From sequence record PX132564.1: 47,573 bases of DNA. One strand, written 5' to 3'. The position numbers were made by a program, and so were the translations under genes. The stretch is from a phage. Of the stretch, positions 15,424-41,542 are shown piece by piece (positions within the stretch are counted from its first letter, which is position 1; every line of letters starts with the position of its first letter). The notes under the pieces were generated by a model. It made no database searches. It was not told the DNA's origin and saw nothing but the letters and a program-made list of their open reading frames with translations.

Positions 15424-18400
15424 ATGGGTAAAGGCAGCAGTAAGGGGCATACCCCGCGCGAAGCGAAGGACAACCTGAAGTCCACGCAGCTGCTGAGTGT
15501 GATCGATGCCATCAGCGAAGGGCCGGTTGAAGGTCCGGTGGATGGATTAAAAAGCGTGCTGCTGAACAGTACGCCGGTGCTGGACAGTGAGGGGAATACC
15601 AATATATCCGGCGTCACGGTGGTGTTCCGGGCCGGTGAGCAGGAGCAGTCACCGCCGGAGGGATTTGAATCCTCCGGCTCCGAGACGGTGCTGGGTACGG
15701 AAGTGAAATATGACACGCCGATCACCCGGACCATCACGTCGGCAAACATCGACCGTCTGCGCTTTACCTTCGGTGTACAGGCACTGGTGGAAACCACCTC
15801 AAAGGGAGACAGGAATCCGTCGGAAGTTCGCCTGCTGGTTCAGATACAGCGTAACGGTGGCTGGGTGACGGAAAAAGACATCACCATTAAGGGCAAAACC
15901 ACCTCGCAGTATCTGGCCTCGGTGGTGGTGGATAACCTGCCGCCGCGCCCGTTTAATATCCGGATGCGCAGGATGACGCCGGACAGCACCACAGACCAGC
16001 TGCTGAACAAAACGCTCTGGTCGTCATACACCGAAATCATCGATGTGAAACAGTGCTACCCGAACACGGCACTGGTTGGCGTGCAGGTGGACTCGGAGCA
16101 GTTCGGCAGCCAGCAGGTGAGCCGTAATTATCATCTTCGCGGGCGCATTCTGCAGGTGCCGTCGAACTATAACCCGCAGACGCGGCAATACAGCGGTATC
16201 TGGGACGGAACGTTAAAACCGGCATACAGCAACAACATGGCCTGGTGTCTGTGGGATATGCTGACCCATCCGCGCTACGGCATGGGGAAACGTCTTGGTG
16301 CGGCGGATGTGGATAAATGGGCGCTGTATGTCATCGGCCAGTACTGCGACCAGTCGGTGCCGGACGGCTTTGGCGGCACGGAGCCGCGCATTACCTGTAA
16401 TGCGTACCTGACCACACAGCGCAAGGCGTGGGATGTGCTCAGTGATTTCTGCTCGGCGATGCGCTGTATGCCGGTATGGAACGGGCAGACGCTGACGTTC
16501 GTGCAGGACCGACCATCAGATAAGGTGTGGACCTATAACCGCAGTAATGTGGTGATGCCGGATGATGGCGCGCCGTTCCGCTACAGCTTCAGCGCCCTGA
16601 AGGACCGCCATAATGCCGTTGAGGTGAACTGGATTGACCCGGATAACGGCTGGGAGACGGCGACAGAGCTCGTGGAGGATACGCAGGCCATTGCCCGTTA
16701 CGGCCGTAACGTCACGAAGATGGATGCCTTTGGCTGTACCAGCCGGGGGCAGGCACACCGCGCCGGGCTGTGGCTGATTAAAACGGAGCTGCTGGAAACG
16801 CAGACCGTGGACTTCAGCGTGGGTGCTGAAGGGCTTCGCCATGTACCGGGGGATGTCATTGAAATCTGCGATGATGACTATGCCGGTATCAGCACCGGTG
16901 GTCGTGTGCTGGCGGTGAACAGCCAGACCCGGACGCTGACGCTCGACCGTGAAATCACGCTGCCATCCTCCGGTACCACGCTGATAAGCCTGGTTGACGG
17001 AAGTGGCAATCCGGTCAGCGTGGAGGTTCAGTCCGTCACCGACGGCGTGAAGGTGAAAGTGAGCCGTGTTCCTGACGGTGTTGCTGAATACAGCGTATGG
17101 GGGCTGAAGCTGCCGACGCTGCGCCAGCGACTGTTCCGCTGCGTGAGTATCCGTGAAAACGACGACGGCACGTATGCCATCACCGCCGTGCAGCATGTGC
17201 CGGAAAAAGAGACCATCGTGGATAACGGGGCGCACTTTGACGGCGAACAGAGTGGCACGGTGAATGGTGTCACGCCGCCCGCGGTGCAGCACCTGACCGC
17301 AGAAGTCACCGCAGACAGCGGGGAATATCAGGTGCTGGCGCGATGGGACACACCGAAGGTGGTGAAGGGGGTGAGCTTTATGCTTCGCCTGACCGTGGCA
17401 GCGGATGACGGCAGTGAGCGGCTGGTCAGCACGGCCAGGACGACGGAAACCACATACCGCTTCAGGCAACTGGCGCTGGGGAACTACAGGCTGACAGTCC
17501 GGGCGGTAAATGCGTGGGGGCAGCAGGGGGATCCGGCGTCGGTATCGTTCCGGATTGCCGCACCGGCAGCGCCATCGCGGATTGAGCTGACGCCGGGCTA
17601 TTTTCAGATAACCGCAACGCCGCATCTTGCCGTTTATGATCCGACGGTACAGTTTGAGTTCTGGTTCTCGGAAAAGCGGATTGCGGATATCAGGCAGGTT
17701 GAAGCCAGCGCGCGTTATCTTGGTACGGCGCTGTACTGGATAGCCGCCAGTATCAATATCAAACCGGGCCATGATTATTATTTTTACATTCGCAGTGTGA
17801 ACACCGTTGGCAAATCGGCATTTGTGGAGGCTGTTGGCCAGCCGAGTGATGATGCATCCGGCTATCTGGATTTTTTCAAAGGAGAGATAGGGAAAACCCA
17901 TCTGGCTCAGGAGTTGTGGACGCAGATTGATAACGGTCAGCTTGCGCCTGACCTGGCTGAAATCAGGACGTCCATTACGGATGTCAGCAATGAAATCACG
18001 CAGACCGTCAATAAGAAACTGGAAGACCAGAGTGCAGCGATCCAGCAGATACAGAAGGTTCAGGTTGATACAAATAATAACCTGAACAGCATGTGGGCTG
18101 TGAAGCTGCAGCAGATGCAGGACGGACGCCTTTATATCGCGGGTATTGGTGCCGGTATTGAGAATACCCCTGACGGTATGCAGAGTCAGGTGCTGCTGGC
18201 GGCGGACAGGATTGCGATGATTAATCCTGCGAATGGCAATACAAAGCCGATGTTTGTTGGGCAGGGCGATCAGATATTCATGAACGAAGTGTTCCTGAAA
18301 TATCTGACGGCTCCCACCATTACCAGCGGTGGCAATCCCCCAACGTTTTCACTGACACCTGATGGTCGACTTTCTGCGAGAAATGCGGATATCAGCGGTA

Positions 18401-18906
18401 ACGTGAATGCGAACTCCGGGACGCTCAATAATGTCACGATTAACCAGAACTGTCGGATTCTGGGAAAACTGTCAGCTAACCAGATTGAAGGTGATATTGT
18501 CAAAACGGTGGGAAAAGCCTTTCCGAGAAATGGCAGTTATGCCAGCGGTACAATAACGGTCACTGTGTACGATGACCAGGCTTTTGACCGTCAGATAGTC
18601 GTCCCCCCCGTTCTGTTTCGCGGTGGTAAGCATGAAAACTTCAACAGCAACAACCAACAGTCATACTGGTATTCAACCTGTAAGCTGCAGGTGCTGAAGA
18701 ACGGACAGGAAATCTTTCAGCAACCCGCGACGGATGTCAGCAGGGTATTTTCATCAGTCATTGATATGCCTGCCGGACACGGCCATGTCACCCTGACTTT
18801 CAATGTTTCTTCATATGGTGCAAATAACTGGACGCCAACGACCAGTATCAGCGACCTTCTTGTTGTCGTGATGAAGAAATCAACAGCCGGCATCAGTATC
18901 AGTTGA
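15424..18906 (+). CDS. J: central tail fibre / host specificity protein J
   Basis: 1160-aa ORF, lambda gpJ-like N-terminal and central regions; C-terminal receptor-binding part not verified. Confidence 0.93.
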
Positions 18907-18958: not shown

Positions 18959-20986
18959 GTGAATATGGCAGTACAGATTTCAGGTGTGCTGAAAGACGGT
19001 GCAGGAAAACCGATACAGAACTGCACCATTCAGCTCAAAGCAAAACGTAACAGCACCACAGTTGTGGTGAACACGGTGGCCTCAGAAAATCCGGATGAAG
19101 CCGGACGTTACAGCATGGATGTTGAGTATGGCCAGTACAGCGTCGCCCTGCTGGTTGAAGGTTTTCCGCCTTCACATGCCGGGACCATCACCGTGTATGA
19201 GGATTCTAAGCCGGGGACATTGAATGATTTTCTGGGCGCTGCAACAGAAGATGATGTTTGTCCGGAGGCACTGTATCGTTTTGAAAAGATGGTGGAAGAG
19301 GCGGCACGCAACGCTGAAGCCGCCTCTCAGAGCGCAGCGGCAGCAAAGAAATCAGAAACAGCAGCGGCATCGTCCAGGAACGCGGCGAAAACATCAGAGA
19401 CGAATGCAGGTAACAGCGCGAAAGCGGCAGCTTCTTCAAAAACAGCCGCACAAAACGCAGCAACAGCGGCAGAACGTTCAGAGACAAATGCCCGTGCGTC
19501 AGAAGAAGCCTCCGCAGACAGTGAAGAGGCTTCCCGCCGTAATGCAGAGTCAGCCGCTGAAAATGCCGGAGTCGCCACCACAAAAGCGCGGGAGGCCGCA
19601 GCAGACGCAACAAAGGCCGGGCAGAAAAAGGATGAGGCTCTGTCGGCAGCGACACGAGCTGAAAAGGCGGCAGACCGCGCAGAAGCCGCAGCGGAAGTGA
19701 CTGCAGAGCCCTGTGCGAATATAGTGCCGCCGCTGCCTGATGTGTGGATACCGTTTAACGATTCACTGGATATGATTACGGGTTTTTCGCCATCTTATAA
19801 AAAGATAGTTATTGGTGACGATGAAATAACAATGCCAGGCGACAAGATTGTTAAGTTTAAACGTGCTTCAACAGCAACGTATATTAATAAGTCCGGCCAA
19901 CTCAAGCTTGCTGAAGTTGACGAACCGCGATTTGAGCGCGATGGCTTATTGATTGAAGGACAGAGGACAAATTATCTGAGGAACTCAAATAAACCAGACT
20001 CATGGACTGTTCATTCCGCACTGAATAAAACATTTGGCACTGATAAACAGGGGTTCAATTATGCCACGGTGACACCCACGGAAAGTATAGTGGGAACAAC
20101 AGGTGGCTATACTGTGCATGGTGTGGTTGCAGCAGACAGATTCCCGCTGGCAAGTGGTGAATGTTTCACTTTTTCGTGCCGGGTTAAAGGCGCTAAAGCA
20201 CGATGCAGGTTAAGAGTTTCAGTTATTATTGGTGGAACAGATACCTTCTCTGCTGACTCTTATCTTGATCTGGATACCCGGATCGCAACAGTAAGCGGTA
20301 ATACATCCCTTATAACAGCCAAAGCTGAACAACAGGGCGAGTGGACCTACTATGAGGCCACTTATACAGCTAATACGGACATTGATACCGTTAACTGTGC
20401 TTTTTATATGACAAATAAAATAAGTAATGAGACATTCTATGATGACTCAACATTAACCATGACGACGCCGCAAATTGAACTGGGCAATACGGCATCGTCA
20501 TTTATTGTAACTACAATGCCAACAACACGCGCAAGTGATGTAGTTACTATCCCATCGCAGAATAACCTGTCAACACGGCCTTTTACGGTATTGTGCGAAG
20601 TAAGCAGGAACTGGAGTACACCGCCCAATGTTGCGCCAAGGATATTTGATGTTGGAGGGCACAGTATTGATGATAATTATTTATCGCTGGGGTTTGTTGC
20701 AACAGGAAAGATAAGCGCCAACGTAGGAATGGTTCAGCCACAAATTGCCTCAGATGGAGAAAGGTTCATTGTGGGTGTGAGAGCTAAATCTGATTTATCA
20801 GTAAATGCAATATGCAATGGTAATTATACAACAAACCTTAATGGTAAAATATTTGGAGTTACAGCAACATCGTACCGGTTTGGTGGGCAGACCGCAGCAG
20901 GAACGCGTCATTTGTTTGGACACATCAGAAATTTCAGAGTCTGGTTTAAAGAATTAAATGACAGGCAAATCAAGGAGGCAGTATGA
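18959..20986 (+). CDS. stf: side tail fibre protein: lambda Stf-like N-terminus plus Ala/Ser-rich repeat shaft plus unrelated AT-rich C-terminal distal domain
   Basis: First ~110 aa MAVQISGVLKDGAGKPIQNCTIQLKAKRNSTTVVVNTVASENPDEAGRYSMDVEYGQYSV... resemble lambda Stf; distal ~400 aa are AT-rich and not lambda-like. Confidence 0.8.
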   Translation: MNMAVQISGVLKDGAGKPIQNCTIQLKAKRNSTTVVVNTVASENPDEAGRYSMDVEYGQYSVALLVEGFPPSHAGTITVYEDSKPGTLNDFLGAATEDDVCPEALYRFEKMVEEAARNAEAASQSAAAAKKSETAAASSRNAAKTSETNAGNSAKAAASSKTAAQNAATAAERSETNARASEEASADSEEASRRNAESAAENAGVATTKAREAAADATKAGQKKDEALSAATRAEKAADRAEAAAEVTAEPCANIVPPLPDVWIPFNDSLDMITGFSPSYKKIVIGDDEITMPGDKIVKFKRASTATYINKSGQLKLAEVDEPRFERDGLLIEGQRTNYLRNSNKPDSWTVHSALNKTFGTDKQGFNYATVTPTESIVGTTGGYTVHGVVAADRFPLASGECFTFSCRVKGAKARCRLRVSVIIGGTDTFSADSYLDLDTRIATVSGNTSLITAKAEQQGEWTYYEATYTANTDIDTVNCAFYMTNKISNETFYDDSTLTMTTPQIELGNTASSFIVTTMPTTRASDVVTIPSQNNLSTRPFTVLCEVSRNWSTPPNVAPRIFDVGGHSIDDNYLSLGFVATGKISANVGMVQPQIASDGERFIVGVRAKSDLSVNAICNGNYTTNLNGKIFGVTATSYRFGGQTAAGTRHLFGHIRNFRVWFKELNDRQIKEAV

Positions 20987-21261
20987 AAGATTTAACTTTG
21001 AAATTTCCTGGTAACAGAGAGTTTAAATCCTTCCTGTCATCTCTTGACTGGGAGGAGGATGAAGACCTCCAGAATAAACTGTTAGTCGATGAAATTGGTT
21101 TCACCTACACAGAAACAGGGGTAACAGAAGAGGGAGAACCTGTCTGTGTCCGGAATGACGGTTATTTTGTCAACATTCGCATTCTTGATGACTTGTTTGA
21201 TGTTTCTGTATTCTCTGATTATGTCGTGGAGCTGGAAACACCGCTTCGGGAATGGAGCTGA
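20983..21261 (+). CDS. hypothetical acidic 92-aa protein, translationally coupled to stf (possible fibre assembly factor)
   Basis: ATGA stop/start overlap with stf; no family recognised. Confidence 0.4.
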   Translation: MKDLTLKFPGNREFKSFLSSLDWEEDEDLQNKLLVDEIGFTYTETGVTEEGEPVCVRNDGYFVNIRILDDLFDVSVFSDYVVELETPLREWS

Positions 21262-21273
21262 AAGGAGGAAATA

Positions 21274-21567
21274 ATGGATATAAGCCCCTTACTTCATGCA
21301 CTTTGTGCTGTGGCTGCGCAGATACTGGTTGGTCTTTTTACCGGAAACTGGGCTTACGGAGCGATAGCCGGTTGTACGTTCTTCATTGCGCGTGAACATA
21401 CCCAGGCAGAATATCGCTGGATTGAAATGTTCGGGCATGGCAAGCGAATGAATATGCCGTGGTGGGGCGGTTTTGATCCGCGAGCTTGGGATGTGGCAAG
21501 CCTGATGGATTTTGCTGTGCCGGTGGTGGCGTGTCTGCTGGTCTGGCTGTTGGTTAATCGTGGGTGA
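21274..21567 (+). CDS. hypothetical small membrane protein (about 3 predicted helices)
   Basis: 97-aa ORF with hydrophobic segments AVAAQILVGLFTG, AIAGCTFFIA, FAVPVVACLLVWLLV; RBS-like AGGAGG upstream. Confidence 0.4.
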   Translation: MDISPLLHALCAVAAQILVGLFTGNWAYGAIAGCTFFIAREHTQAEYRWIEMFGHGKRMNMPWWGGFDPRAWDVASLMDFAVPVVACLLVWLLVNRG

Positions 21568-21658
21568 AAAAAGGTGAGCTGTATATGCAACGGAGGAAGA
21601 AACCCCGTTGCTGGAAGCCAGGAAAAAGTATCGGGTGTTGCTGTCCTCGGATGTTGTG

Positions 21659-22516
21659 CTAATTGGGTGATAACAGATCCTGTGTATGGGAGTTTCCCTT
21701 TTTGCGTGCGTTGATGCTGGTAACGGCAAACGTCATGATGAACAAAACCGCGAATAAGACGACAATCGTCGGAGCTGGTGCGCTGTCGATAAAAAAGGAC
21801 AACCAGACACCAGTCATTGACACTATTACCGATATGCCAGTCGCCAGTAGGAGCGCAATATGAAAGCGTTGTGTCAGGAGTACCGCAATGGCGCCAGGCG
21901 CAATGAGCAGAGAAATGGAGAGAATGATACCTACCGCTTTCAGCGTCGCCACAATGGTCAGAGAGACCATGCACAGCAGCCCATAATGCAGCCATCTCGT
22001 ATGCAAACCGCTTACCTGCGCCTGTTGATAATCAAAGCTGAACAGCAAAAAATCCCGCCATTTTACGCTAATAACAAGTGTAACCAGCCCGGCAATAATC
22101 ATCGTCTGGATTATATCGCCGATGGTTATCCCGAGCATGTCGCCGAAAAGAATATGGTCAAGATGTACGTCTGGTTTGACTGCAATATACAAGATCAGAC
22201 CTGCGGCAAACATGCCAGAAAAAACAATCCCCATCACTGTATCTTGCTTGATTCGGCTGTTGTCTTTCAGGTATCCCGTCGCCACCGCACAGAATACTCC
22301 GGCGACGAATGCCCCTGTAGCCAAAGGTAACCCCAGAATCCAGGCAAGCACGATGCCAGGAAAAACCGCATGACTCATCGCGTCACCCATCAGTGCCCAA
22401 CCTTTCAGGACCAGAAAGACCGACAGCAGCGCACAGGGTATGGAAACTACCAGTGAAATCAGCAGTGCGTGACTCATAAAGGTGAACTGCAGTGGCTCCA
22501 GTAATAATGCCATCAT
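21659..22516 (-). CDS. sitD: Mn/Fe ABC transporter permease SitD
   Basis: 285-aa polytopic membrane protein, last gene of a four-gene binding protein/ATPase/permease/permease operon. Confidence 0.85.
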   Translation of the reverse strand: MMALLLEPLQFTFMSHALLISLVVSIPCALLSVFLVLKGWALMGDAMSHAVFPGIVLAWILGLPLATGAFVAGVFCAVATGYLKDNSRIKQDTVMGIVFSGMFAAGLILYIAVKPDVHLDHILFGDMLGITIGDIIQTMIIAGLVTLVISVKWRDFLLFSFDYQQAQVSGLHTRWLHYGLLCMVSLTIVATLKAVGIILSISLLIAPGAIAVLLTQRFHIALLLATGISVIVSMTGVWLSFFIDSAPAPTIVVLFAVLFIMTFAVTSINARKKGNSHTQDLLSPN

Positions 22517-23370
22517 GAGCGATCCTCCAGCGCCTTATGCGCACGCCGACGATTTGCCAAAAGCCCATGGGTGGGCGCAAAGACAAATGCTAAAAGAAAC
22601 AGCAGTGTCTGCGCCACCACGATGATTCCACCTGTCGCGCCGTCCAGAAAGTAACTGACCCACGCGCCGAGGAAACTGGTTACACTGCCAATAGTTACAG
22701 CAATCATGAGCAGGCGGGGAAAACGATCGGTTAACAACCATGCTGTTGCACCGGGAGTCACCACCAGACAGATCACCAGAAAGGCACCAACCGTTTGCAG
22801 CGCCGCAACGGTCGAAACCGACAGCAGGGTGAAGAAGAGGAGTTTTAATCTGCCCGGATGCAATCCAATAGCACGGGCGTGATTCTCGTCGAAAAAGGTC
22901 ACCATAAGATCTTTCCATTTGAAAAAAAGCACGATGATCGAGAGAATGCCAATGATAGTGAGTTGCAGGATATCCGCCGGATCGATTGCCAGAATATTGC
23001 CCAGGACGATGGTCTGAATGTTCACAGATGTCGGGTTCAATGACACCATAAACAGCCCCAGGCCAAAAAAGGACGAGAAGATCAGACCGATGATGGCATC
23101 TTCTTTTAAGCGGGTGCGTTGGTTAAGAAACAGCATGCTGCCCGCAGCCAGTCCGCCGGAAAAGAAGGCTCCCAGAGAAAACGGAAGCCCCAGCATATAT
23201 GCCCCCGCAACACCCGGGACAATAGAGTGCGACAACGCATCGCCAATCAGCGACCAGCCTTTTAGCATCAGATAGCATGACAGGAAAGCGCAGAGACCGC
23301 CGACCATCGCCGAGACCCACATCGCATTGAGCATATATTCATAGCTGAAGGGTTCCAGTAGCACGTTCAT
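22513..23370 (-). CDS. sitC: Mn/Fe ABC transporter permease SitC
   Basis: 285-aa polytopic membrane protein, paralogous to the adjacent permease. Confidence 0.85.
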
Positions 23371-24194
23371 CTTTCTTCCCTCTGCACCGCTGACGGTCGA
23401 TGAGCCACAAAAGGGCGTTCATCGTCAGTAATAATGCTTTCTTCCGAGCCGTTAAGTGTGACATGGCGCAGTACGCCGCTAAAAGCCAGCTCTAGGTTCT
23501 CGGCTGTAAAAGTGGTGTCTGTCGGCCCGCTTGCCAGGACGGTGCCTTTGACCATGACCGTATAATCGCAAAATGTCGTGACGGATCCGAGATTGTGTGT
23601 TGAGACAAGCATCGTTTTGCCTTCCGCGCGTAACTCCCTCAACAGGCTGATGATTTTGGCTTCGGTTTTCACATCAACGCCAGTAAAAGGTTCATCCAGC
23701 AGGATCACATCACCCTGCTGTGCAATCGCTCTCGCCAGAAAGACGCGTTTCTTTTGTCCACCGGAAAGCTCGCCGATTTGTCGATGGCGAAAATTCACCA
23801 TATCGACACGTTCCAGCGCATCGGTGACAATTTGACGATCCCTCTTTTTGGCGATACGCAACATACCCATATGCCCATAGCGGCCCATCATCACCACATC
23901 TTCCACCAGTACAGGAAATGACCAGTCAACATCTTCTGACTGAGGGACGTAGGCAACCAGGTTTTTCTGTAACGCCTGTCGCGTGGGAATACCCAGAACA
24001 GATATCTTTCCGCTGGTCAGACGCACAAATCCCATAATCGCTTTAAACAACGTCGATTTTCCGGAACCGTTTACCCCAACCAGAGCGGCAATAGATCCAC
24101 TTGGTACTGTGAAGGATGCATCGCGCAGTGCTGTGTGCCCGTTACGCCAGGTGACAGTAACATCATTAACGACAATGCCTGCAGATTGCATCAT
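23367..24194 (-). CDS. sitB: Mn/Fe ABC transporter ATP-binding protein SitB
   Basis: Walker [13 protein letters not shown] signature LSGGQKKR, Walker B ILLDEP. Confidence 0.9.
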
Positions 24195-25108
24195 TATTTC
24201 TCCCTTTTCCCAGCTTTAATTCCCTGTACCAGCGTACTGGTAGTAACCTTAAGAAGGTCGATATACGTCGGTACCGGGCCGTTTTCTGTGCTCAGGGAAT
24301 CGACATAGAGCACACCGCCGTAGTGTGCGCCGGTTTCACGCGCAACCTGACGCGCTGGTTTATCGGAAATCGTACTCTCGCTAAAGACTGCCGGGATATG
24401 ATTTTTCTTAACTATATCAACAACCTTACGTACCTGCTGCGGTGTTCCTTGTTGATCGGCATTAATCGGCCACAGATAAAGCTCTTTTAGCCCCAAATCG
24501 CGTGCGAGATAAGAAAAAGCCCCTTCACTGGTGACCATCCATCGCTGATTCTCAGGGAGTTCCGTAATCTGCTTACGCAGGGGGGCAAGGGTTTGGGTAA
24601 TCTTGGCTTTATAAGTATCGGCATTGCGTTGGTAGGTTTGTGCATTTGCCGGATCGTATTTTATCAACGCATCACGAATATTATCGACGTAAATCAGAGC
24701 ATTATCTGGCGACATCCATGCATGGGGGTTAGGTTTGCCCTCATAGGGTCCTTCGGTGATCCCTACAGGCGTCACACCCGAAGAGACAATTACTTCTGGA
24801 ACCCCATTGAGATGCTGGTAAAAGCGTTGGAACCACAATTCCAGATTCATACCATTGGCGAGAATCAGTTGTGCCCCCTGCGCACGTTTAATATCGCCAG
24901 GGGTAGGCTGATACTCATGAATTTCTGCACCAGGCTTGGTTATGGATGAGACTTCTGCAGCATCTCCCGCCACGTTTTTGGCCATATCCGCGATGATGGT
25001 AAATGTTGTAATGACCTTGAATTTTTCAGTTGCACTTGCCTGAAATGCGATCGAGCAGGTGAGTGCGAGCCCCCCCAAGAGCATGGTTACTTTTTTTATC
25101 GAGTGCAT
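24194..25108 (-). CDS. sitA: periplasmic Mn/Fe-binding protein SitA
   Basis: 304-aa protein with signal peptide [26 protein letters not shown] and metal-binding-protein-like body. Confidence 0.9.
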
Positions 25109-25140
25109 AATTTAGTACCTATAGTGAGCAAAATTAGAAC

Positions 25141-25163
25141 AAATATAGCAACGGCTATGTTTT
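25141..25163 (-). promoter_or_regulatory. MntR-box-like palindrome upstream of sitA
   Basis: AAATATAGCAACGGCTATGTTTT contains the inverted repeat ATAGC-N4-GCTAT, close to the MntR box AAACATAGC...GCTATGTTT as I recall it. Confidence 0.5.
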
Positions 25164-25184
25164 ATAGCACAGCCTATACAAAAT

Positions 25185-25203
25185 GAAAATGATTATCATT
25201 AGC
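25185..25203 (-). promoter_or_regulatory. Fur-box-like sequence upstream of sitA
   Basis: GAAAATGATTATCATTAGC matches about 16 of 19 positions of GATAATGATAATCATTATC. Confidence 0.5.
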
Positions 25204-25502
25204 AGCTTTGAGGCCCAAAACAGGGATTAGGTTGTTTCCTGCTGGCGACGCGTTATTGAGGAAAAAAGTAAGGCAGCTAGTAGGCTTTGAAATAACGTTT
25301 TGCGGTTGGCTGATGCAATTTCGAGAGTGCATGTATTGAATGATTTCTAGCCGTTACTGATTTTCGTATTTTTTGTATGGGAGGATTTGCACCTCCCCCC
25401 ACCGAGCCTCCATGACTTTACTCCACTGTCTCTAGGGCTGCTGTGTGCCAGGAGCGGAAGCAGGGGGGCCAGAGACTCCTTAAAAGTTGATAGCTCGTTT
25501 TG

Positions 25503-25598: not shown

Positions 25599-25806
25599 TC
25601 GACGGAAGCAGTTCCGTTTGGTCTATGATGCAGTTGTCCGGCAGGCGCTCTGTGACGCAAAAGAACGATAGGAGTAGCATTGAAGTGAACGAGGTTATGC
25701 TTGTCTTATATTATCCTCTATTTTAAAAACATCAGCTGGTTGTGTAAGAGTTTTTATTGTTTTATCTTGTTGACTTTGCTTTTATGAAAACAGAGTGATT
25801 GATACA

Positions 25807-26565
25807 ATGAAAACCTTAAGTGGGAAAGAGTTTAGGAAATTATTTAATCGTTATGAGACAGGATTCTATCTAAGTGAGTTTGAATACTTAAAGGACTTTG
25901 ATCCTTTGTTTCCTGAATGCGTAGGGAAAGAATTAAAGTTGGGTTATAAACGAAAAGTTGATGTATGGTGCGAAGAGGATGCTGCGCTATATGCAGAATT
26001 TATAGCTACAAAAGAAAGGCTGAAAAGAGGCCGGTTAATCCTAAAAATAAACCAAGTGTGGTCGCGTGTATATCCTGCTTATATTTATGCAATTGAAGAA
26101 AGAATAAATGTCAGGGCAAAGGGGAGAGAGTCATTTAAGTATGAAACTGTGCAAGAAAAACAATGTAAACTTTCCATAATGTTAGATGGTCTGAAAGACC
26201 TTGAATGTGAAATAGCTATGATTTCAAGTGAGTTTGAAATTGAAAAACACTCTATGCACTATTTTTATATGATTTTTGATATTGAACGCTATATAAATGA
26301 CTGCAGTTACTTTGTTTTTTCTGCTGCTAAAGTTGTTAAAGGCGTGATTCAATGCATTGGTTACATTGACAAAAATAACAAAGCAAGTTGCGATGAATTT
26401 TATTCAGGCAGCTATGAATGCTTGGATGATGATCAGGAAACACTGAACTATTTAAATGAATCATGCGCAGAGGGTATAGACGCTGATAAAGATCTCATCA
26501 GGAAGAATGAGTTATTAGCCTTATCCCTGAAGGAATTGTATCAACTTCTCGTTTCAAAAAAATAA
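25807..26565 (+). CDS. hypothetical protein, AT-rich orphan (252 aa)
   Basis: Long uninterrupted ORF MKTLSGKEFRKLFNRYETGFYLSEFEYLKDFDPLF... with markedly lower GC than flanking phage DNA; AT-rich upstream with TTGACT -35-like hexamer; no family recognised. Confidence 0.55.
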   Translation: MKTLSGKEFRKLFNRYETGFYLSEFEYLKDFDPLFPECVGKELKLGYKRKVDVWCEEDAALYAEFIATKERLKRGRLILKINQVWSRVYPAYIYAIEERINVRAKGRESFKYETVQEKQCKLSIMLDGLKDLECEIAMISSEFEIEKHSMHYFYMIFDIERYINDCSYFVFSAAKVVKGVIQCIGYIDKNNKASCDEFYSGSYECLDDDQETLNYLNESCAEGIDADKDLIRKNELLALSLKELYQLLVSKK

Positions 26566-27024: not shown

Positions 27025-27189
27025 CTGCTGCGCCATATGGGTTGGACTGAAGCGGCTGACCTGATTGTTAAAGGTATGGAAGGCGCAATCAATGCCAAGA
27101 CCGTAACCTATGACTTCGAACGTCTGATGGAAGGCGCTAAACTGCTGAAATGTTCAGAGTTTGGTGACGCGATCATCAAGAATATGTAA
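27025..27189 (+). pseudogene. icd: phage-borne copy of the icd (isocitrate dehydrogenase) 3' end within attP
   Basis: Translates in frame to ...[54 protein letters not shown], the Icd C-terminus; no upstream icd body; lies just downstream of the int 3' end. Confidence 0.8.
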
Positions 27190-27212
27190 TCACTACATGT
27201 GTTAAATATTGA

Positions 27213-27241
27213 AACGGGCGTATAACACGCCCGTTGTTTTA
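27213..27241 (+). terminator. rho-independent terminator after the icd fragment
   Basis: ACGGGCGT-ataac-ACGCCCGT followed by TGTTTTA. Confidence 0.6.
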
Positions 27242-27255
27242 TGATGATGTAAAAT

Positions 27256-27292
27256 CTTCCCCAAAACTTTCCCCAAAACCCTTCCCCAAAAC
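27256..27292 (+). repeat. three tandem 12-13 bp direct repeats (C/T)TTCCCCAAAAC, candidate integrase arm-type sites
   Basis: CTTCCCCAAAAC / TTTCCCCAAAAC / CTTCCCCAAAAC at about 27256, 27268, 27281, just beyond the int stop. Confidence 0.4.
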
Positions 27293-27302
27293 TGGCTATT
27301 TT

Positions 27303-28445
27303 CTATGCTGTTTTGATATCTACGATAATCCAGTCTTTACCACGATCATCATTGTATCGGTCGGTCATTTTTCTGGATTTATGGCCTAACAACTTTTGCG
27401 TATCCAGACCCTGTTCCCGATATAACCGTTCTGACAGAGATCGCTGCTCATGAAATGTGGGCGCAGTTCCTTGCTCCCATTTTATGCCACATTTTTCCCG
27501 GGCCTTTTTAAAAGCCGTTGTCAGAGTATTTGCAGAAACCTGGTCTCCTCTGTTTGCTTGAGAGGTAGTGTGACGGTAATGGACCAGATATTTACTAACA
27601 ACAGCATCCCTGCACTGAGATATAACTTCACGAAGGGTAATATTCAGAGCATCGCATTTCAGGTTAAGCGGAATAGCAAGTTTTGAACCGGTTTTTTCCT
27701 GAGTAATGTGCAACATGTCGTCCCATATATCAGAGAATTTCAAATTGCAGATATCGCCTAAACGTTGTCCAGTAACAAGAGCAAGTAGCATGCCGCATTT
27801 TAAATAGGGCTGCCGTCTGCTTACGCTGTCAAATATTGCCTGCCATTCGGGCAGTGACAATCTTTGGCGGTTTACTCGATTTCGCGGTTGTTTTGTTGCC
27901 TGCGCTGGGTTAAATCCTGGCGGAACATGTCCTGCGTGTTGTGCTTCTTTGAAGACGTCGATCAACACCATTCTCACGACTTGCGCCATCCTGTTATGAC
28001 CTTCAGCCTTTACAGCATCAATTATTTCGGCAATATCAAGTGCGGTAATATCCTTGAGGTGTTGCATTCCACAATGCTCACGGAAAAGACGAATGGGTTT
28101 GCCTTTTTGCCGATAGGAGTTGGGTCTTAGTTCATTATGTTGCAGCCTGTCCTCTTGGATAGAAATATATTTATCAAGCCATTCTGTCACCGTAATGTCT
28201 GAGCGCCTGCCTTTCATTCTTTCCAGACGCTCATTGACGCTTAATATTTGTCTGGTACGTTGTTCAGCAATAATGGTATTTGCTTCAGTAGCAACTTGTT
28301 TTGCTTCATTCTCATCAGTTCCTAAGCTATGAAAACGACCGGATAGTGGATGTTTGTATTGCCAATATACCTTTCCGGTTCGCTTATCTAATTTGCAATA
28401 TAAATTGGGTATAGAGATTTTGTGAGATCGGGGTCTAGCAGCCAT
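27303..28445 (-). CDS. int: tyrosine integrase (lambda Int family)
   Basis: 380-aa protein; C-terminal catalytic region ...FHEQRSLSERLYREQGLDTQKLLGHKSRKMTDRYNDDRGKDWIIVDIKTA with R..H..R..Y arrangement; adjacent to attP and xis. Confidence 0.9.
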   Translation of the reverse strand: MAARPRSHKISIPNLYCKLDKRTGKVYWQYKHPLSGRFHSLGTDENEAKQVATEANTIIAEQRTRQILSVNERLERMKGRRSDITVTEWLDKYISIQEDRLQHNELRPNSYRQKGKPIRLFREHCGMQHLKDITALDIAEIIDAVKAEGHNRMAQVVRMVLIDVFKEAQHAGHVPPGFNPAQATKQPRNRVNRQRLSLPEWQAIFDSVSRRQPYLKCGMLLALVTGQRLGDICNLKFSDIWDDMLHITQEKTGSKLAIPLNLKCDALNITLREVISQCRDAVVSKYLVHYRHTTSQANRGDQVSANTLTTAFKKAREKCGIKWEQGTAPTFHEQRSLSERLYREQGLDTQKLLGHKSRKMTDRYNDDRGKDWIIVDIKTA

Positions 28446-32956: not shown

Positions 32957-33646
32957 CTACCCATGCTTCCTATATGTCTGCGGCATGCTCCCAATAACCT
33001 TACCGAAGATGAACACCCGGTTCATCTCGTCTTTCTCGATCGGGTCCCACGGTGAGTAGCTTTTGTTATCAGAGATGACCAGCAGCTTATCCTTCATCAT
33101 TTGCAGGCGCTTTACATGGGCTGTGTCGTCGTACAGAAACGCATAGATACCATCACCGTCGAAAGATTTAACTGTGATATCAACGAACAGCAGATCACCT
33201 GGTTCGATCGTTCCTGACATGCTGTCACCACGCACGTTAATGATGCGGATATTTTCCGCCTTCCTACCATCGAACATGTGACGAGCATCGTCAAACGAGT
33301 ACTCAACCGAGCGTAGAACTTCTACAAACTCACGGTTGATGACTCCCGGCCCAGCACTGACTTCTATATCAAGAACGTCAATCTTGAAGTATTTGGAATG
33401 GCTGACAGTTGATTGTATTGGTTGCACTGTACTGTCTGACATATTTCCAACGCCAGAAGATAACCATTCTGCGCGCACACCCAAAGCGTTCGCGATCTCC
33501 ACGATTTTAGTTGTTTGATTAGCTTTCCCTGTTTCGATTTTCTGAATAGCAGCCTGGCTAACCCCGACCAAATCCCCAAGCGCCTTTTGTGTAAGGCCTC
33601 GCGCTAATCTGGCTTCTTTAAGTCTTTCTGAGAGTGTTGTTTTCAT
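32957..33646 (-). CDS. cI: CI-type repressor (HTH_XRE N-terminus, LexA/S24 peptidase-like C-terminus)
   Basis: MKTTLSERLKEARLARGLTQKALGDLVGVSQAAIQKIETG... HTH, then C-terminal ...INVRGDSMSGTIEPGDLLFVD...VKRL... with Ser/Lys dyad motifs; divergent from cro; not lambda cI. Confidence 0.85.
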   Translation of the reverse strand: MKTTLSERLKEARLARGLTQKALGDLVGVSQAAIQKIETGKANQTTKIVEIANALGVRAEWLSSGVGNMSDSTVQPIQSTVSHSKYFKIDVLDIEVSAGPGVINREFVEVLRSVEYSFDDARHMFDGRKAENIRIINVRGDSMSGTIEPGDLLFVDITVKSFDGDGIYAFLYDDTAHVKRLQMMKDKLLVISDNKSYSPWDPIEKDEMNRVFIFGKVIGSMPQTYRKHG

Positions 33647-33690
33647 AGTCCAAATGTACAACCAAGGTTTTATTCCATCAAACGAAAATG

Positions 33691-33723
33691 GTTGTTGACT
33701 AAAAACAACCATAGTTTTAATCT
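33691..33723 (+). promoter_or_regulatory. OR-like operator palindrome overlapping a pR-like promoter
   Basis: ATGGTTGTT-GACTAAA-AACAACCAT palindrome; TTGACT (-35) inside it, 17-bp spacer, TAATCT (-10), then GGAGG RBS and cro ATG. Confidence 0.55.
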
Positions 33724-36553: not shown

Positions 36554-39500
36554 ATGACCACTGTGAATAAAAAGTTAAAAAAAACTGCATCTGGCGCGAT
36601 TACATGGTCGGTAATTGTTACCCAGATATTATCTCCAGTTTCTCTTTCTTTGATCCCAGCAAACAGTTTTGCATCATCTGGTAATAAAGATGTTACGCAA
36701 ATTTATGCCAGCGATGAGCATGCAAATAAAGTGGCCTCATTTGCAGCAAGTGCAGGTCAGAGCCTGGCGAATAATAATGCAAGTAGTTTTGCTGTAAATA
36801 CTTTATCAACTCAGGCGACAAAAGAGGTCGTCGACTGGTTGCAACAATATGGCAATGCGCGCATCAAGCTTAATGTCGATGATTCTTTTTCCTTGAAGGA
36901 TTCATCATTCGACTTTTTATATCCATGGCTGGATACTCAGGATTATGTGTTATTCAGTCAGACATCACTACATCGTACTGATGACCGAAATCAGACCAAT
37001 ATTGGTTTGGGGATTCGTCATTTCACTCCTGATAACGCAATGTTGGGTGCGAATGTTTTCTATGATTACGATTTAAGTCGTAGTCACTCTCGTGCAGGTT
37101 TTGGGGTTGAGTACTGGAGGGATTATTTCAGGCTTGGTGTAAATACCTATTTTGGTCTATCTGACTGGAAGAACAGTCGTGATATTGATGATTATCTGGA
37201 AAGACCTGCAAATGGCTGGGATTTTTCTGCTGAAGGATGGCTACCTGCTTATCCGCAATTAGGGGCATCTATTCAGTTTGAAAAATATTATGGTAAAAAT
37301 GTCGGGTTATTTGGAAGCGATAACCTGCAGGAAAACCCTTACGCAGTTACTGGGGGAATTTCTTATACACCAGTTCCTCTGATTAAGTTTTCTGCACAGC
37401 ATAAGCAAGGACAGAGCAACACTCACGATACAACCTTTGGTGTTGAGTTTAATTATCGCCCGGGCGTTTCCTTGGCTGAACAGCTTAGCAGCGATAATGT
37501 TGCAGTTATGCGAGAAGTCCAGAACCGGCGTTATGATTTTGTTGAACGAAATAACAACATTGTTCTGGAGTACAAGAAGAAGCATGCACTGAAAATCAGT
37601 TTGCCAGAGTCTGTTCAGGGGGAGGGGGAATCAATCATCCCTGTAACACTGACAATCAACAATGCTAGTGGTGGTATCAAGTCTGTACAGTGGAATGATA
37701 GTGCATTCACTGCGGCTGGCGGCAAGATCAGTGGAAATGGCACATCATGGCAGATCACTTTACCGGCTTATAAAAGCGAAGGTGTAAATTCGTGGAATGT
37801 TGGAGCCACAGTACAGGATAACAGAGGCAACGTTTCCAACTATGCCGTGATGAATATTAGCGTTACTGATAGTGGTGTCTCGACGGCTGATTCGTCTTTT
37901 ACACTGGATGGAGATTCGTCGCCGACAATCTCTGCTGATAGCCAATCCACTTATCCGATAGTATTAAGCCTGAAAGATAGTAACGGTAAGGCATTAACCG
38001 GACTGGCTGATGACATTGAAATGTCAGTGGAATTTACAGCAGATAGCAATAGTGCTCGACAGCGTGAAACGGTAACTGCTCCGTCATTAGGCGCGGTAGA
38101 GGAAATCTCTGCTGGGGTATATCGCTCTAAAAGCGAAGGTGTAAATTCGTGGAATGTTGGAGCCACAGTACAGGATAACAGAGGCAACGTTTCCAACTAT
38201 GCCGTGATGAATATTAGCGTTACTGATAGTGGTGTCTCGACGGCTGATTCGTCTTTTACACTGGATGGAGATTCGTCGCCGACAATCTCTGCTGATAGCC
38301 AATCCACTTATCCGATAGTATTAAGCCTGAAAGATAGTAACGGTAAGGCATTAACCGGACTGGCTGATGACATTGAAATGTCAGTGGAATTTACAGCAGA
38401 TAGCAATAGTGCTCGACAGCGTGAAACGGTAACTGCTCCGTCATTAGGCGCGGTAGAGGAAATCTCTGCTGGGGTATATCGCTCTGTTCTGGCTGCTGGT
38501 TCGCAGGCTGGTACGGTACGTGTAACTGCAAAAGTTCAGGGAAAAACATTTACTCTCAGTATTAAGCAAACAGCAACAACAGAACCTGATTCTGAGGTCA
38601 GTGCTGTTTTAACCGCTGCACCAGCAGAACAGGTAGTTGGTTACAATATCAATCTACAACTGGCAGTGAAGGATTCACAAGGAAATGCAATCACTGGTGA
38701 TAACACTCTGAGCTTTTATGCTCTTAACCAGGCAGAAGGAGTCGAGTTTGGGACTGTAACGGAAAAAGACGGTGTCTATAGCGCGACAGTAACTTCAAAA
38801 CGAGCTGGTAAGATTACTATCGGTGTTAAATCTGATAGTCATGATTTCTCAGGTGTTAAGAAAGAAATCACCTTTATTGAGGACCGGCAGCAGGTTACAT
38901 TCTCTCAGTTTGAAGCCAGCCAAAATAATGCATTGGCTGATGGAAAACAGAGAAATATGGTAACTGTAAGCCTTGCGGACCGTTTCGGCAATGTTGTTCC
39001 TGGTTATGCTGTCACATTGTCTTTACCAGCAGGGATAACTCAAGTTGGTGGTGAACATGCTGTTTCAACTGACGAAAATGGTAATGCTATTTTTGCGTTA
39101 ATAAGCTCCACTCCGGGGTCTTACGTGATTACAGCTCATGCTGGTTCTCAGATGTCTACTGAGTTAACAGTGACCTTTGCATCAAATATGACCGGAGCTT
39201 CACTGTCACTGACGCCTGAAAGCAGTAGTTTAATTTCCAATATTCCTGCTAATGGTAAGGATGCAGCGGTATTAGATGTGCAGCTGACAAATACGAATGC
39301 GTCGGTCAATGGGCAAAAGATTCAGCTCATCACCTCATCTGAAGGATTATCTGTACCAACAAATATCGTGACTGATTCAACAGGGCATGTTTCTGTTCCG
39401 CTTACAACGGTGAAAGCTGGTGAGTACACGGTGACTGCACGGGTGACTGACGGTTCCCATAGCGTGGAATCTGGCAGCGTTAAGTTAACTTTTGTGCCCG

Positions 39501-40462
39501 ATGTTGCTTCTGCAGAACTGAATATGAGTGTATCAAAACAGGAGATTGTGGCCGATGGCAGTGAAAACGCAACAGTAAACATTCAGTTGGTTGATGCGAA
39601 TAACAATGCGTTTACAGGCGAGGTGGATTTAACGATTACACCATCGACGGGAGCATCATTGACCAGTAGTAATCTGCAACTGGATGCTCATGGACAGGCA
39701 ACAACGCAGTTCACTGCATCGAAATCAGGCCAGTACACAATTCAGGCCGAGTATGTTCTGGATGGGAAACGCATAACCGCAAGCCAGAATATTGATGCCG
39801 TGACGGATGTGAAGGGGGCTGTGTTGGAGATCACATCATCTGCATCTTCGGCTGTAGTGAGCGATACCAACAATCTGGTATTTACGTTACTGTTGAAAAG
39901 TAAGTCAGGCGAAGCATTAAGTGGTCGAGCATTGAATGTTAAGACATCTGGGCCGTCTAAATATGGTGCGTTGGTGGTTGATAAAACCACAGTAACGACT
40001 GATGAGAACGGTCAGGCTACGGTAAGCGTACATGGTCGAACGGTTGGTTCGTATAAATTAACGGCGACCTTAAACGAACTTGGCAGTGATGTTAGCGCGG
40101 TGAAATCATTCTCCCTGTACGCTGATGACGCAAATGGAGTATTGACTCTAACAAAAGATCCTGGTTATGAGACAAACGATGGATCTCCAGTAGGTATTTA
40201 TGCTCGATTTGTCGATCATTTTGGAAACCCATTATCTGGTACGGTTGAGTTTTCTGCTGGTAGTGAAGATAGTCCAGACTCTCAACGGGTCAAAATGGAG
40301 CCTGCTACAGTAACGTTACACTGGACAGGTAATGCAGCTTCGGAATTCAGCACCTATGAAAGTGGTTATCACTGGATTAAGGCCAAAATAACGAATAGCA
40401 AAAATACATATGAGAAAACAATAAGGACTTATGTTGTAAAACTACCTGAAAAGGATAGTTAA
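36554..40462 (+). CDS. invasin/intimin-family inverse autotransporter adhesin with multiple Big (Ig-like) repeats
   Basis: 1302 aa; signal peptide, then a beta-barrel region (…LFSQTSLHRTDDRNQTNIGLGIRHF…NPYAVTGGISYTPVPL…DRNNNIVLEYKKK) resembling Yersinia invasin/intimin, then serial Ig-like repeats; AT-rich upstream. Confidence 0.85.
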   Translation: MTTVNKKLKKTASGAITWSVIVTQILSPVSLSLIPANSFASSGNKDVTQIYASDEHANKVASFAASAGQSLANNNASSFAVNTLSTQATKEVVDWLQQYGNARIKLNVDDSFSLKDSSFDFLYPWLDTQDYVLFSQTSLHRTDDRNQTNIGLGIRHFTPDNAMLGANVFYDYDLSRSHSRAGFGVEYWRDYFRLGVNTYFGLSDWKNSRDIDDYLERPANGWDFSAEGWLPAYPQLGASIQFEKYYGKNVGLFGSDNLQENPYAVTGGISYTPVPLIKFSAQHKQGQSNTHDTTFGVEFNYRPGVSLAEQLSSDNVAVMREVQNRRYDFVERNNNIVLEYKKKHALKISLPESVQGEGESIIPVTLTINNASGGIKSVQWNDSAFTAAGGKISGNGTSWQITLPAYKSEGVNSWNVGATVQDNRGNVSNYAVMNISVTDSGVSTADSSFTLDGDSSPTISADSQSTYPIVLSLKDSNGKALTGLADDIEMSVEFTADSNSARQRETVTAPSLGAVEEISAGVYRSKSEGVNSWNVGATVQDNRGNVSNYAVMNISVTDSGVSTADSSFTLDGDSSPTISADSQSTYPIVLSLKDSNGKALTGLADDIEMSVEFTADSNSARQRETVTAPSLGAVEEISAGVYRSVLAAGSQAGTVRVTAKVQGKTFTLSIKQTATTEPDSEVSAVLTAAPAEQVVGYNINLQLAVKDSQGNAITGDNTLSFYALNQAEGVEFGTVTEKDGVYSATVTSKRAGKITIGVKSDSHDFSGVKKEITFIEDRQQVTFSQFEASQNNALADGKQRNMVTVSLADRFGNVVPGYAVTLSLPAGITQVGGEHAVSTDENGNAIFALISSTPGSYVITAHAGSQMSTELTVTFASNMTGASLSLTPESSSLISNIPANGKDAAVLDVQLTNTNASVNGQKIQLITSSEGLSVPTNIVTDSTGHVSVPLTTVKAGEYTVTARVTDGSHSVESGSVKLTFVPDVASAELNMSVSKQEIVADGSENATVNIQLVDANNNAFTGEVDLTITPSTGASLTSSNLQLDAHGQATTQFTASKSGQYTIQAEYVLDGKRITASQNIDAVTDVKGAVLEITSSASSAVVSDTNNLVFTLLLKSKSGEALSGRALNVKTSGPSKYGALVVDKTTVTTDENGQATVSVHGRTVGSYKLTATLNELGSDVSAVKSFSLYADDANGVLTLTKDPGYETNDGSPVGIYARFVDHFGNPLSGTVEFSAGSEDSPDSQRVKMEPATVTLHWTGNAASEFSTYESGYHWIKAKITNSKNTYEKTIRTYVVKLPEKDS
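37772..38485 (+). repeat. perfect tandem duplication, 2 x 357 bp (119 codons), inside the adhesin gene
   Basis: Protein segment KSEGVNSWNVGATVQDNRGNVSNYAVMNISVTDSG...EEISAGVYRS occurs twice back to back; antisense track ORFs 37760-37945 and 38087-38302 are identical over their shared 60 residues. Confidence 0.9.
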
Positions 40463-40473
40463 CAAAATTGAAT

Positions 40474-40500
40474 GGGGAGGGCTTAGCCCTCCCTCTTTTT
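40474..40500. terminator. bidirectional rho-independent terminator between convergent adhesin and esterase genes
   Basis: GGGGAGGGC-tta-GCCCTCCC(T)C followed by TTTTT on plus and an A/T-rich run on minus. Confidence 0.7.
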
Positions 40501-41542
40501 ACAGGTTAGCGTTTGGGTTTTGTTGTTGGGGAGCTGTTTTTATAGGCGCTCCCAGGTTTTTAGTAAACCACTCAACGACTCTGTTTATAATAATTGGCTG
40601 ATACCATGTCTTATCGCCATGCTCGGCCCCTTCTACCAGCACGTACTCAGCGTTATCACCGTTCTTCTTCAACATCCTGAATAGTTTGGCGCTTTGCTCA
40701 GGTGAAACCAGAGTGTCTTTGCTACCATGCATAATAAGAAATGGGGGTTTTACTCCTTTCATATGTCCGATTGGACTGGCGTTTAGCGCTTTTTCTTTTG
40801 ACGCTGTGATGGGGGCTCCCGCAAAATTTCTGAATGCAGGGCCATTGATCATTAAGGCTTCGGTTACGGCAGGAGAGCGATGAACCTCCTGCACTGATTC
40901 AGGGAACCCCTCGCCAATATTCAACAAGTCAGAAATCCCATAAAGTGTGGCAACTGCCTGAACATCTGAGGATTGCTGAAGAAAGTCACCTTTATCAAAG
41001 GTTTTGTCACCATTTGTAGTTCCCATCATCTGGGCAAGCCATCCACCGGCAGAGTCACCCAGAACTCCGATTCTTTGAGGATCAATCCCATAATTGCTGG
41101 CATGCTCTCTCAGGTAACGTATTGCAGCTTTTCCATCCTCAACTGGTGCTGGAAATGTATCAGGAATTGTTCTGTATTCTACAGCGGCCACAACAAAACC
41201 AGCTTCTGCCAGAGCCATTCTCATTTCAATAAATTTGTCATGTTCAGAAGACATGAATCCGCCGCCGGGATAATAAATAATGGCTGGTTTTAAATCATTT
41301 GTTCGCGGGACAAGAACTGACATGTGAAGCTGTCTGACAGAACGAGTTCCTTTTATCTGGGAATAAACAACATCACCAATGAGATCGACCTGGTTTCTGG
41401 TCGGTGAAACACTAATGATATCTGCACCCGGGGTGTAACCAGGAAGATTAGTCTGGACAGGTGTTGCACAACTCCCGACCGACATGGCCATTGACATACC
41501 ATACAATAGTGTTGCAGATGATAATATCTTGTTAATTTTCAT
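40499..41542 (-). CDS. alpha/beta-hydrolase esterase/lipase, probable lipoprotein
   Basis: 347 aa; lipoprotein-type signal ending in Cys; oxyanion-hole PGGGF, nucleophile elbow GDSAGG, C-terminal HG. Confidence 0.8.
   Translation of the reverse strand: MKINKILSSATLLYGMSMAMSVGSCATPVQTNLPGYTPGADIISVSPTRNQVDLIGDVVYSQIKGTRSVRQLHMSVLVPRTNDLKPAIIYYPGGGFMSSEHDKFIEMRMALAEAGFVVAAVEYRTIPDTFPAPVEDGKAAIRYLREHASNYGIDPQRIGVLGDSAGGWLAQMMGTTNGDKTFDKGDFLQQSSDVQAVATLYGISDLLNIGEGFPESVQEVHRSPAVTEALMINGPAFRNFAGAPITASKEKALNASPIGHMKGVKPPFLIMHGSKDTLVSPEQSAKLFRMLKKNGDNAEYVLVEGAEHGDKTWYQPIIINRVVEWFTKNLGAPIKTAPQQQNPNANL

Follow-up and report, generated by a model that had tools for sequence, protein, structure and literature searches.

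A sitABCD operon carried by a lambdoid phage, with Fur and tandem MntR operator sequences upstream of sitA

The window analyzed here is a phage genome of 47,573 nucleotides, in which positions 21659 to 25108 are filled by four consecutive minus-strand ORFs (from the ORF listing) that are translationally coupled, with stop/start overlaps of 4, 4, and 1 bases between neighboring genes. The gene order (binding protein, ATPase, permease, permease) is that expected of SitABCD/YfeABCD importers, and the domains of the products (Table 1) bear out the four-gene ABC importer proposed in an earlier note on this DNA. The operon had also been called complete, a description that holds at the DNA level: over 3552 bases the sequence matches RefSeq-annotated sitABCD of Escherichia coli chromosomes with 100% identity, and the annotated genes have the same lengths. 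Upstream of sitA, on the same strand, are a Fur box and two MntR boxes that overlap a putative promoter.

Table 1. Features of the sit locus and its upstream region
Feature	Coordinates	Strand	Description
sitA	24194-25108	-	Periplasmic Mn2+/Fe2+ substrate-binding protein, 304 aa; Pfam ZnuA, E 8.9e-86
sitB	23367-24194	-	ABC ATPase, 275 aa; Pfam ABC_tran and NCBIfam PRK15056
sitC	22513-23370	-	Inner-membrane permease, 285 aa; Pfam ABC-3, E 5.6e-83, full-length
sitD	21659-22516	-	Inner-membrane permease, 285 aa; Pfam ABC-3, E 1.5e-76, full-length
Fur box GCTAATGATAATCATTTTC	25185-25203	-	17/19 consensus bases, 2 mismatches to 19-mer
Proximal MntR box AAACATAGCCGTTGCTATATTT	25141-25162	-	1 mismatch to AAACATAGC-N4-GCTATGTTT
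Distal MntR box core ATAGGCTGTGCTAT	25164-25177	-	ATAGC-N4-GCTAT type, one core mismatch
Putative sigma-70 promoter	25161-25189	-	Placed by eye from sequence
sit cassette, ~3.65 kb	~21644-25290		sitD stop to ~180 bases upstream of sitA

The Fur box is centered ~86 bases 5' of the ATG of sitA, and nothing else in the window comes within 3 mismatches of the consensus (0 of 100 shuffles had such a site). The copies on the plasmid and in phage 21, 4C10, and ST131 all keep it, and the Fur-box-like sequence reported earlier is thus both beyond chance and conserved. The MntR-box-like palindrome of the same report is confirmed as the proximal box, which occurs once in the window where 0.02 would be expected (2 of 100 shuffles contained one), but there are two tandem MntR boxes rather than one. 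The interval given in the earlier note ends at 25210 and takes in both the Fur site and the proximal MntR site.

In the sitA upstream regions of 12 genera, conserved blocks are confined to these three boxes, and the block of Fur box plus double MntR box is conserved upstream of sitA in ~10 to 12 Enterobacterales genera, with diverged flanking DNA. The ATAGC and GCTA of the proximal box are invariant across the 12 genera. The distal box, found at -69 in the sitA upstream comparison, has an invariant GCTAT half in the alignment and reads ATAGC-N4-GCTAT without mismatch in Phytobacter, Shimwellia, Klebsiella, Raoultella, Enterobacter, Buttiauxella, Atlantibacter, and Pantoea, as well as in the ColV-type plasmid copy. 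Relative to the perfect boxes in other copies, the phage described here has a G-to-A change in the proximal box (GCTATATTT, as also in the ST131 copy, versus GCTATGTTT in phage 21 and the plasmid) and a C-to-G change in the distal box, so that MntR affinity could be somewhat lower. By sequence comparison, the two MntR operators stand in tandem on the sitA-proximal side of the Fur box, their cores 19 bases apart, and this layout is conserved across the Enterobacterales. The E. coli K-12 mntH promoter follows the same operator logic, a Fur box and then an MntR box, with a near-identical palindrome of the AAACATAGC-N4-GCTATGTTT type (AAACATAGCAAAGGCTATGTTT, directly 5' of the ATG), although it controls an NRAMP symporter rather than an ABC importer and has only a single clear MntR box.

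These comparisons make it very unlikely that the likeness to operators is due to chance in AT-rich DNA, with expression being constitutive or phage-driven rather than metal-regulated by the host. Regulator binding at the sitA promoter is predicted, each MntR box here departs from the perfect boxes by one substitution, and the copy in prophage Perceval is detectably expressed in an LB overnight culture, a metal-replete medium; however, the shuffle counts, the confinement of upstream conservation to the three boxes, and the same layout at K-12 mntH all argue against chance, and repression by Fur and MntR is published for the Salmonella and Shigella sit orthologues (review PMC3852070). On statistical and phylogenetic grounds, the operator sequences are real.

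A putative -35 hexamer (TTTTCA, 25184 to 25189) overlaps the 3' end of the Fur box and is separated by a 17-base spacer from a putative -10 hexamer (TATAAA, 25161 to 25166), which lies between, and overlaps, both MntR boxes. A consensus promoter and terminator scan gave counts no higher than in shuffles and missed the sitA promoter on account of the final A of its -10 hexamer; placement of the promoter was therefore by eye, and we infer both the hexamers and the occlusion of the promoter by the repressors. Rfam at gathering thresholds returned no RNA family across the whole window, and thus neither a riboswitch nor an sRNA for the sit leader.

The assignment of the products is clearest for SitB, which scores 592.8 bits against NCBIfam NF011630 (PRK15056, "manganese/iron ABC transporter ATP-binding protein"; cut-off, 393) over residues 1 to 274, and in whose translation the Walker A (GVNGSGKST), signature (LSGGQKKR), and Walker B (ILLDEP) motifs are all visible. 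No NCBIfam model reaches its curated cut-off with SitA, SitC, or SitD, and the naming of these proteins thus rests on near-identity to annotated proteins together with Pfam; the matching records all annotate the sitA product as SitA. SitA has a signal-like sequence at its N terminus, and in structure it is most closely related to YfeA and to the Mn transporter MntC, the closest solved structure being Yersinia YfeA (5uxs; E 4e-125, with residues 24 to 297 aligned gap-free). SitA residues H64, H129, E195, and D270 align in 5uxs with YfeA positions 76, 141, 207, and 282, which we take to be the His/His/Glu/Asp metal ligands, and Glu195 at the third ligand position presumably denotes the Mn/Fe-type His-His-Glu-Asp set and not the Zn type.

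That the locus encodes a transporter of another metal family (of the Zn-specific ZnuABC/AztABC type, or for some other substrate) with merely superficial likeness to Sit is extremely unlikely, even though the Pfam family of the binding protein bears the name ZnuA and the zinc models AztB and AztC give E values of ~1e-54 to 1e-58. The Azt and Znu scores are all under their curated cut-offs (e.g., AztC, 196.8 versus 350; ZnuA, 66 versus 268), on which ground a Zn-family assignment is rejected, whereas the Mn/Fe ATPase equivalog passes; the structural relatives, the presumed ligand at the third position, and the complete DNA identity to annotated sitABCD also speak for the Sit family, as had been claimed earlier. 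Orthologues of SitABCD transport both Mn2+ and Fe2+, and published uptake assays on orthologues show no preference for Zn (review PMC3852070). The region is therefore very probably an intact sitABCD operon encoding a cluster A-I ABC importer for Mn2+/Fe2+, with the transport specificity taken from these orthologues.

The tail genes are on the plus strand (a J-like gene at 15424 to 18906 and the side tail fiber gene at 18959 to 20986) and the integrase gene is on the minus strand at 27303 to 28445, which places the sit operon, as proposed, in the b-region equivalent on the strand opposite the tail genes. Homology to the sit-less phage HannyBb ends at 21643 and picks up again at 25288; that to pEC5-2, a ColV-type plasmid, covers 21632 to 25293, and that to Lambda_4C10 ends at 25245. 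Three phages (HannyBb, Tritos, and PhiR49_1) match the flank only, up to 21643, and lack sit though they are syntenic. Presence or absence of sit thus varies at a fixed site, in a region that is not needed for lytic growth, as in a moron. A consensus scan found no intrinsic-terminator-like site 3' of sitD of the kind that morons can carry as their own, and folding of positions 21560 to 21665 after sitD gave only a modest hairpin (z -2.3), which no T-run adjoins and which belongs to the phage backbone.

The earlier description of sit as phage cargo agrees with its occurrence in the same place in phage 21, Perceval, the Lambda_ev series, and others, and with its absence from the syntenic HannyBb. 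The proposal that sit is instead adjacent host DNA within a prophage-derived window (through a boundary or assembly artifact, or specialized transduction) is hardly credible, for although sit is close to the prophage end, adjoining attP/icd', and ~44% of complete E. coli genomes (2384 of 5426) have it, it lies inside the phage genome between the tail fiber genes and attP/int, is present in genomes sequenced from virions or from induced phages (among them phage 21, a 1950s isolate), and in an ST131 chromosome is followed by host genes only past the icd' remnant. In both phage 21 and the ST131 prophage, sit likewise adjoins the tail fiber and the icd' remnant.

Carriage of sitABCD by lambdoid phages has been published before and is very common among E. 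coli, and there is nothing new in it here. Mathieu et al. (2020, PMC6969025) reported the operon, with an upstream fur box, as a moron on 70% of the lambda phages of the infant gut, and Chaudhuri et al. (2010, PMC2808357) listed it among the prophage cargo of EAEC 042. In at least 26 deposited lambdoid phages, including phage 21, the LF82 prophage Perceval, and the Lambda_ev series, the locus is 99.6 to 99.9% identical to ours, as measured over a 4.1-kb query around sit. The lambdoid copies that we compared (phage 21, OL657228; Perceval, OV696612; the Lambda_ev/1H12 series; and the EAEC 042 prophage 042p3) have the same position, between the side tail fiber and attP/int, the same orientation, and the same operators, with only a few single-base differences. 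Expression in a lysogen is documented for Perceval, in which sitA-D are transcribed 4- to 13-fold above the prophage background (Misson et al. 2023, PMC9928086), and that copy is 99.9% identical to the one described here. With phage sit already documented in the infant-gut lambda phages, phage 21, and Perceval, this phage adds a further near-identical example and no new biology.

The sitABCD of IncF/ColV-type virulence plasmids, a lineage characterized in APEC, consists of the same four genes with the same Fur and MntR boxes, and these plasmids share the same cassette, but the plasmid copies are ~97.3 to 97.4% identical, rather than at least 99.6%, and in a representative IncFIB/FIC plasmid sit is flanked by IS1 and the aerobactin/crcB region and not by phage genes. 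Salmonella SitABCD (SPI-1) and Yersinia YfeABCD are orthologous Mn2+/Fe2+ ABC importers that are encoded by chromosomal island genes and are not phage-borne. SitA here is 74% identical to that of Salmonella arizonae, and Salmonella has the Fur box and proximal MntR box at matching positions; the distal MntR box is degenerate in both Salmonella and Citrobacter. Yersinia is without MntR (review PMC3852070).

A phage-21-like lambdoid phage that integrates at icd thus very probably carries sit as a self-contained moron cassette between its tail fiber genes and attP/int, and we propose that in the lysogen a promoter within the cassette would drive sit transcription, convergent with the late operon. 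As that promoter is overlapped by the Fur box and by both MntR boxes, Fe-Fur and Mn-MntR of the host would repress sit when metal is plentiful, with release under Fe/Mn limitation or oxidative stress. Such control is predicted by orthology, and repression of SitABCD by Mn-MntR is published (review PMC3852070). The lysogen would thereby gain an additional Mn/Fe uptake route. The tandem arrangement of the MntR operators might give cooperative, switch-like repression by Mn2+, which the substitutions in this phage might partly relax, a possibility that we offer tentatively and consider somewhat doubtful; the sit regulation literature, as surveyed, goes no further than "a fur box" or a general mention of repression by MntR.

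The locus illustrates how a temperate phage spreads a metal-uptake operon that would be regulated by the host and is associated with virulence, which bears on the fitness of E. coli in the gut, within macrophages, and during extraintestinal infection; the contribution of sit to virulence is that reported in the literature for orthologues or near-identical copies. The phage surrounding the cassette is a different mosaic from its sit-carrying relatives, with a left arm that is ~97.6% identical to 1H12 and a right arm of which ~70% is covered by PhiR47_2.

Four successive ORFs fill positions 21659-25108 on the minus strand in an ORF translation of the window (see the table), with stop and start codons overlapping by 1, 4, and 4 bases at the sitA/B, B/C, and C/D junctions, the usual mark of a translationally coupled operon. 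The ORFs, Pfam, and an NCBIfam equivalog bear out the earlier proposal of a four-gene ABC importer with a binding protein, an ATPase, and two permeases. All four products match over their full lengths, SitA to ZnuA (E = 8.9e-86), SitB to ABC_tran, and SitC and SitD to ABC-3 (E = 5.6e-83 and 1.5e-76), and SitB exceeds the cut-off of the NCBIfam equivalog 'manganese/iron ABC transporter ATP-binding protein' (592.8 bits vs 393). A zinc-transporter identity is rejected, as the AztA/B/C and ZnuA/B models all fall under their own NCBIfam cut-offs. SitA aligns gap-free with Yersinia YfeA (5uxs; E = 4e-125), and its residues H64, H129, E195, and D270 align to specific YfeA positions, which we take to be the His/His/Glu/Asp metal ligands. 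The sitABCD assignment itself is supported by a stretch of 3552 bases, reaching through the upstream operators, for which several E. coli chromosomes, one of them from an ST131 strain, carry a 100% identical sequence annotated in RefSeq as sitABCD.

Features of the sit locus and other genes discussed in the text
Feature	Position	Strand	Details
Tail genes	15424-18906, 18959-20986	+	ORF calls
Small ORF	20983-21261	+	92 aa
Small ORF	21274-21567	+	97 aa
sitD	21659-22516	-	285 aa
sitC	22513-23370	-	285 aa
sitB	23367-24194	-	275 aa
sitA	24194-25108	-	304 aa
Proximal MntR box	25141-25162	-	AAACATAGCCGTTGCTATATTT
Predicted -10	25161-25166	-	TATAAA
Distal MntR box	25164-25177	-	ATAGGCTGTGCTAT
Predicted -35	25184-25189	-	TTTTCA
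Fur box	25185-25203	-	GCTAATGATAATCATTTTC
Hypothetical ORF	25795-26565	+	256 aa
icd' ORF	27037-27189	+	50 aa; adjoins 27190-27302
Tyrosine integrase	27303-28445	-	ORF calls
cI repressor	32957-33712	-	LexA-like
Adhesin	36554-40462	+	1302 aa
Alpha/beta hydrolase	40499-41542	-	347 aa

The boundaries of the locus were set by local BLAST against retrieved loci. Homology to the sit-less syntenic phage HannyBb ends at 21643 and returns briefly from 25288. The match to the IncF ColV-type plasmid pEC5-2, whose sit copy has IS1 and the aerobactin region as neighbours, covers 21632-25293, and homology to the sit-bearing phage Lambda_4C10 extends to 25245. These limits define sit as a discrete ~3.65-kb unit, whose ~180 bases upstream of sitA hold all three operators and whose insertion point is 15 bases past the sitD stop codon. 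Over the 4.1 kb around the locus, identity is 99.9% to the sit region of numerous lambdoid phage records (1H12, the Lambda_ev series, Perceval, and PhiR47_2) and 99.6% to that of classical phage 21; all of them annotate the genes as SitA-D. Of 5426 complete E. coli genomes, 2384 carry the locus, which lies at 1683 places on chromosomes and 1061 on plasmids. A copy with 97.3-97.4% identity is found on over 1000 plasmids, most of them conjugative IncF types. The window as a whole is a lambdoid mosaic; for its left arm, 98% of 25 kb aligns with phage 1H12 and the Lambda_ev series at ~97.6% identity, and any single deposited phage covers only 44-70% of the right arm (best PhiR47_2, 70%).

That sitABCD is phage cargo is already known. 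Mathieu et al. (2020) report it as the most abundant virulence-associated cargo, in 70% of infant-faeces lambda phages, with an upstream fur box 'in all cases', placing the operon in the host Fur regulon (PMC6969025). The phage 21 genome announcement describes morons encoding bacterial virulence factors (PMC9119081), its GenBank record annotates SitA-D, and a review (PMC7545054) covers the 'PAI sit' known from Shigella and E. coli.

The earlier note had also described an MntR-box-like palindrome and a Fur-box-like sequence upstream of sitA, and both were found. The Fur box agrees with the consensus at 17 of 19 bases; no other site in the window comes within 3 mismatches, and none of 100 shuffles gave one; the proximal MntR box has one mismatch to AAACATAGC-N4-GCTATGTTT (0.02 sites expected), and a distal box lies 19 bases upstream of it. 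In the E. coli K-12 mntH promoter, AAACATAGCAAAGGCTATGTTT is found just 5' of the start codon with a Fur-like AATTTGATAATCATTCTCG ahead. Copies from the plasmid, phage 21, Lambda_4C10, and ST131 keep the boxes too. The window's sitA promoter is identical to the ST131 chromosomal copy; its proximal box reads GCTATATTT, with the consensus GCTATGTTT at this place in phage 21, Lambda_4C10, and the ColV-type plasmid, and its distal box reads ATAGG, compared with ATAGC in the plasmid. These substitutions could tune manganese sensitivity. A predicted -35 overlaps the Fur box at its 3' end, and a predicted -10, after a 17-base spacer, sits between the two MntR boxes and extends into them; a consensus promoter scan of the window did not list this putative sitA promoter, and no intrinsic terminator was found after sitD.

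Upstream regions of sitA loci retrieved from other Enterobacterales were compared in a 12-genus alignment. The block of a Fur box and two successive ATAGC-N4-GCTAT motifs recurs at equal distance from the ATG in Phytobacter, Shimwellia, Klebsiella, Raoultella, Enterobacter, Buttiauxella, and Atlantibacter. Erwinia amylovora retains the proximal box and a Fur-like site. In Pantoea both MntR boxes are present, and the corresponding position shows no recognisable Fur box (best match, 7 mismatches); Salmonella arizonae and Citrobacter have a degenerate distal site. Invariant columns cluster in the boxes, and DNA farther upstream is unalignable. We found no statement of this tandem MntR operator architecture or its conservation in the available sit literature, and regard it as a minor regulatory point.

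SitA would capture Mn2+ and Fe2+ in the periplasm and hand the metal to a SitC/SitD channel, with SitB supplying power. In a lysogen the operon would be expressed from its own promoter, and with replete metals Fe-Fur and Mn-MntR would repress it. The transport and regulation steps draw on work on orthologues, namely transport of both metals in Salmonella, APEC, and Shigella and repression by MntR (review PMC3852070), and lysogenic expression on the 99.9% identical Perceval copy, where sitA-D are 4-13 fold over prophage background (PMC9928086).

The tail genes are on the plus strand and the integrase follows on the minus strand, and the sit operon thus occupies the b-region equivalent on the strand opposite the tail genes, as previously noted, and converges on the late operon. 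The layout matches that of phage 21 and the ST131 prophage, where the side tail fibre is followed by two small ORFs and sitDCBA, and these in turn by a 759-base hypothetical gene and an icd' remnant before attP/int or host DNA begins. Among PHROGs, the small ORFs hit only families of unknown function (phrog_1361 and phrog_1443), the second is a putative membrane protein in the phage 21 annotation, and both are phage backbone because they are common to sit-less phages. Between sit and attP, in a low-GC stretch (36-41% GC), is a further cargo-like gene, the 256-aa ORF, which is kept in phage 21 and the ST131 prophage, has no Pfam domain, and has phrog_20520 (unknown function) as its sole PHROGs match. 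Just ahead of the integrase gene, the icd' ORF repeats the isocitrate dehydrogenase C-terminus; the phage therefore integrates into icd, restoring its 3' end. Phage 21 is annotated with an icd pseudogene adjoining attP, and the ST131 prophage has the same junction.

A candidate second, large lysogenic-conversion gene is in the nin/late-regulatory region and codes for an inverse autotransporter (intimin/invasin-type adhesin) with an IAT_beta domain (E = 5e-101) and five Big_1/Invasin_D3 repeats, matching PHROGs of unknown function (phrog_7803 and phrog_16344). Directly after it, on the opposite strand, an alpha/beta hydrolase (BD-FAE, E = 5.7e-45; Abhydrolase_3) is probably another moron; 'alpha/beta hydrolase' or esterase is annotated among the right-arm match features of related phages. 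The cI repressor has HTH_3 and Peptidase_S24 domains.
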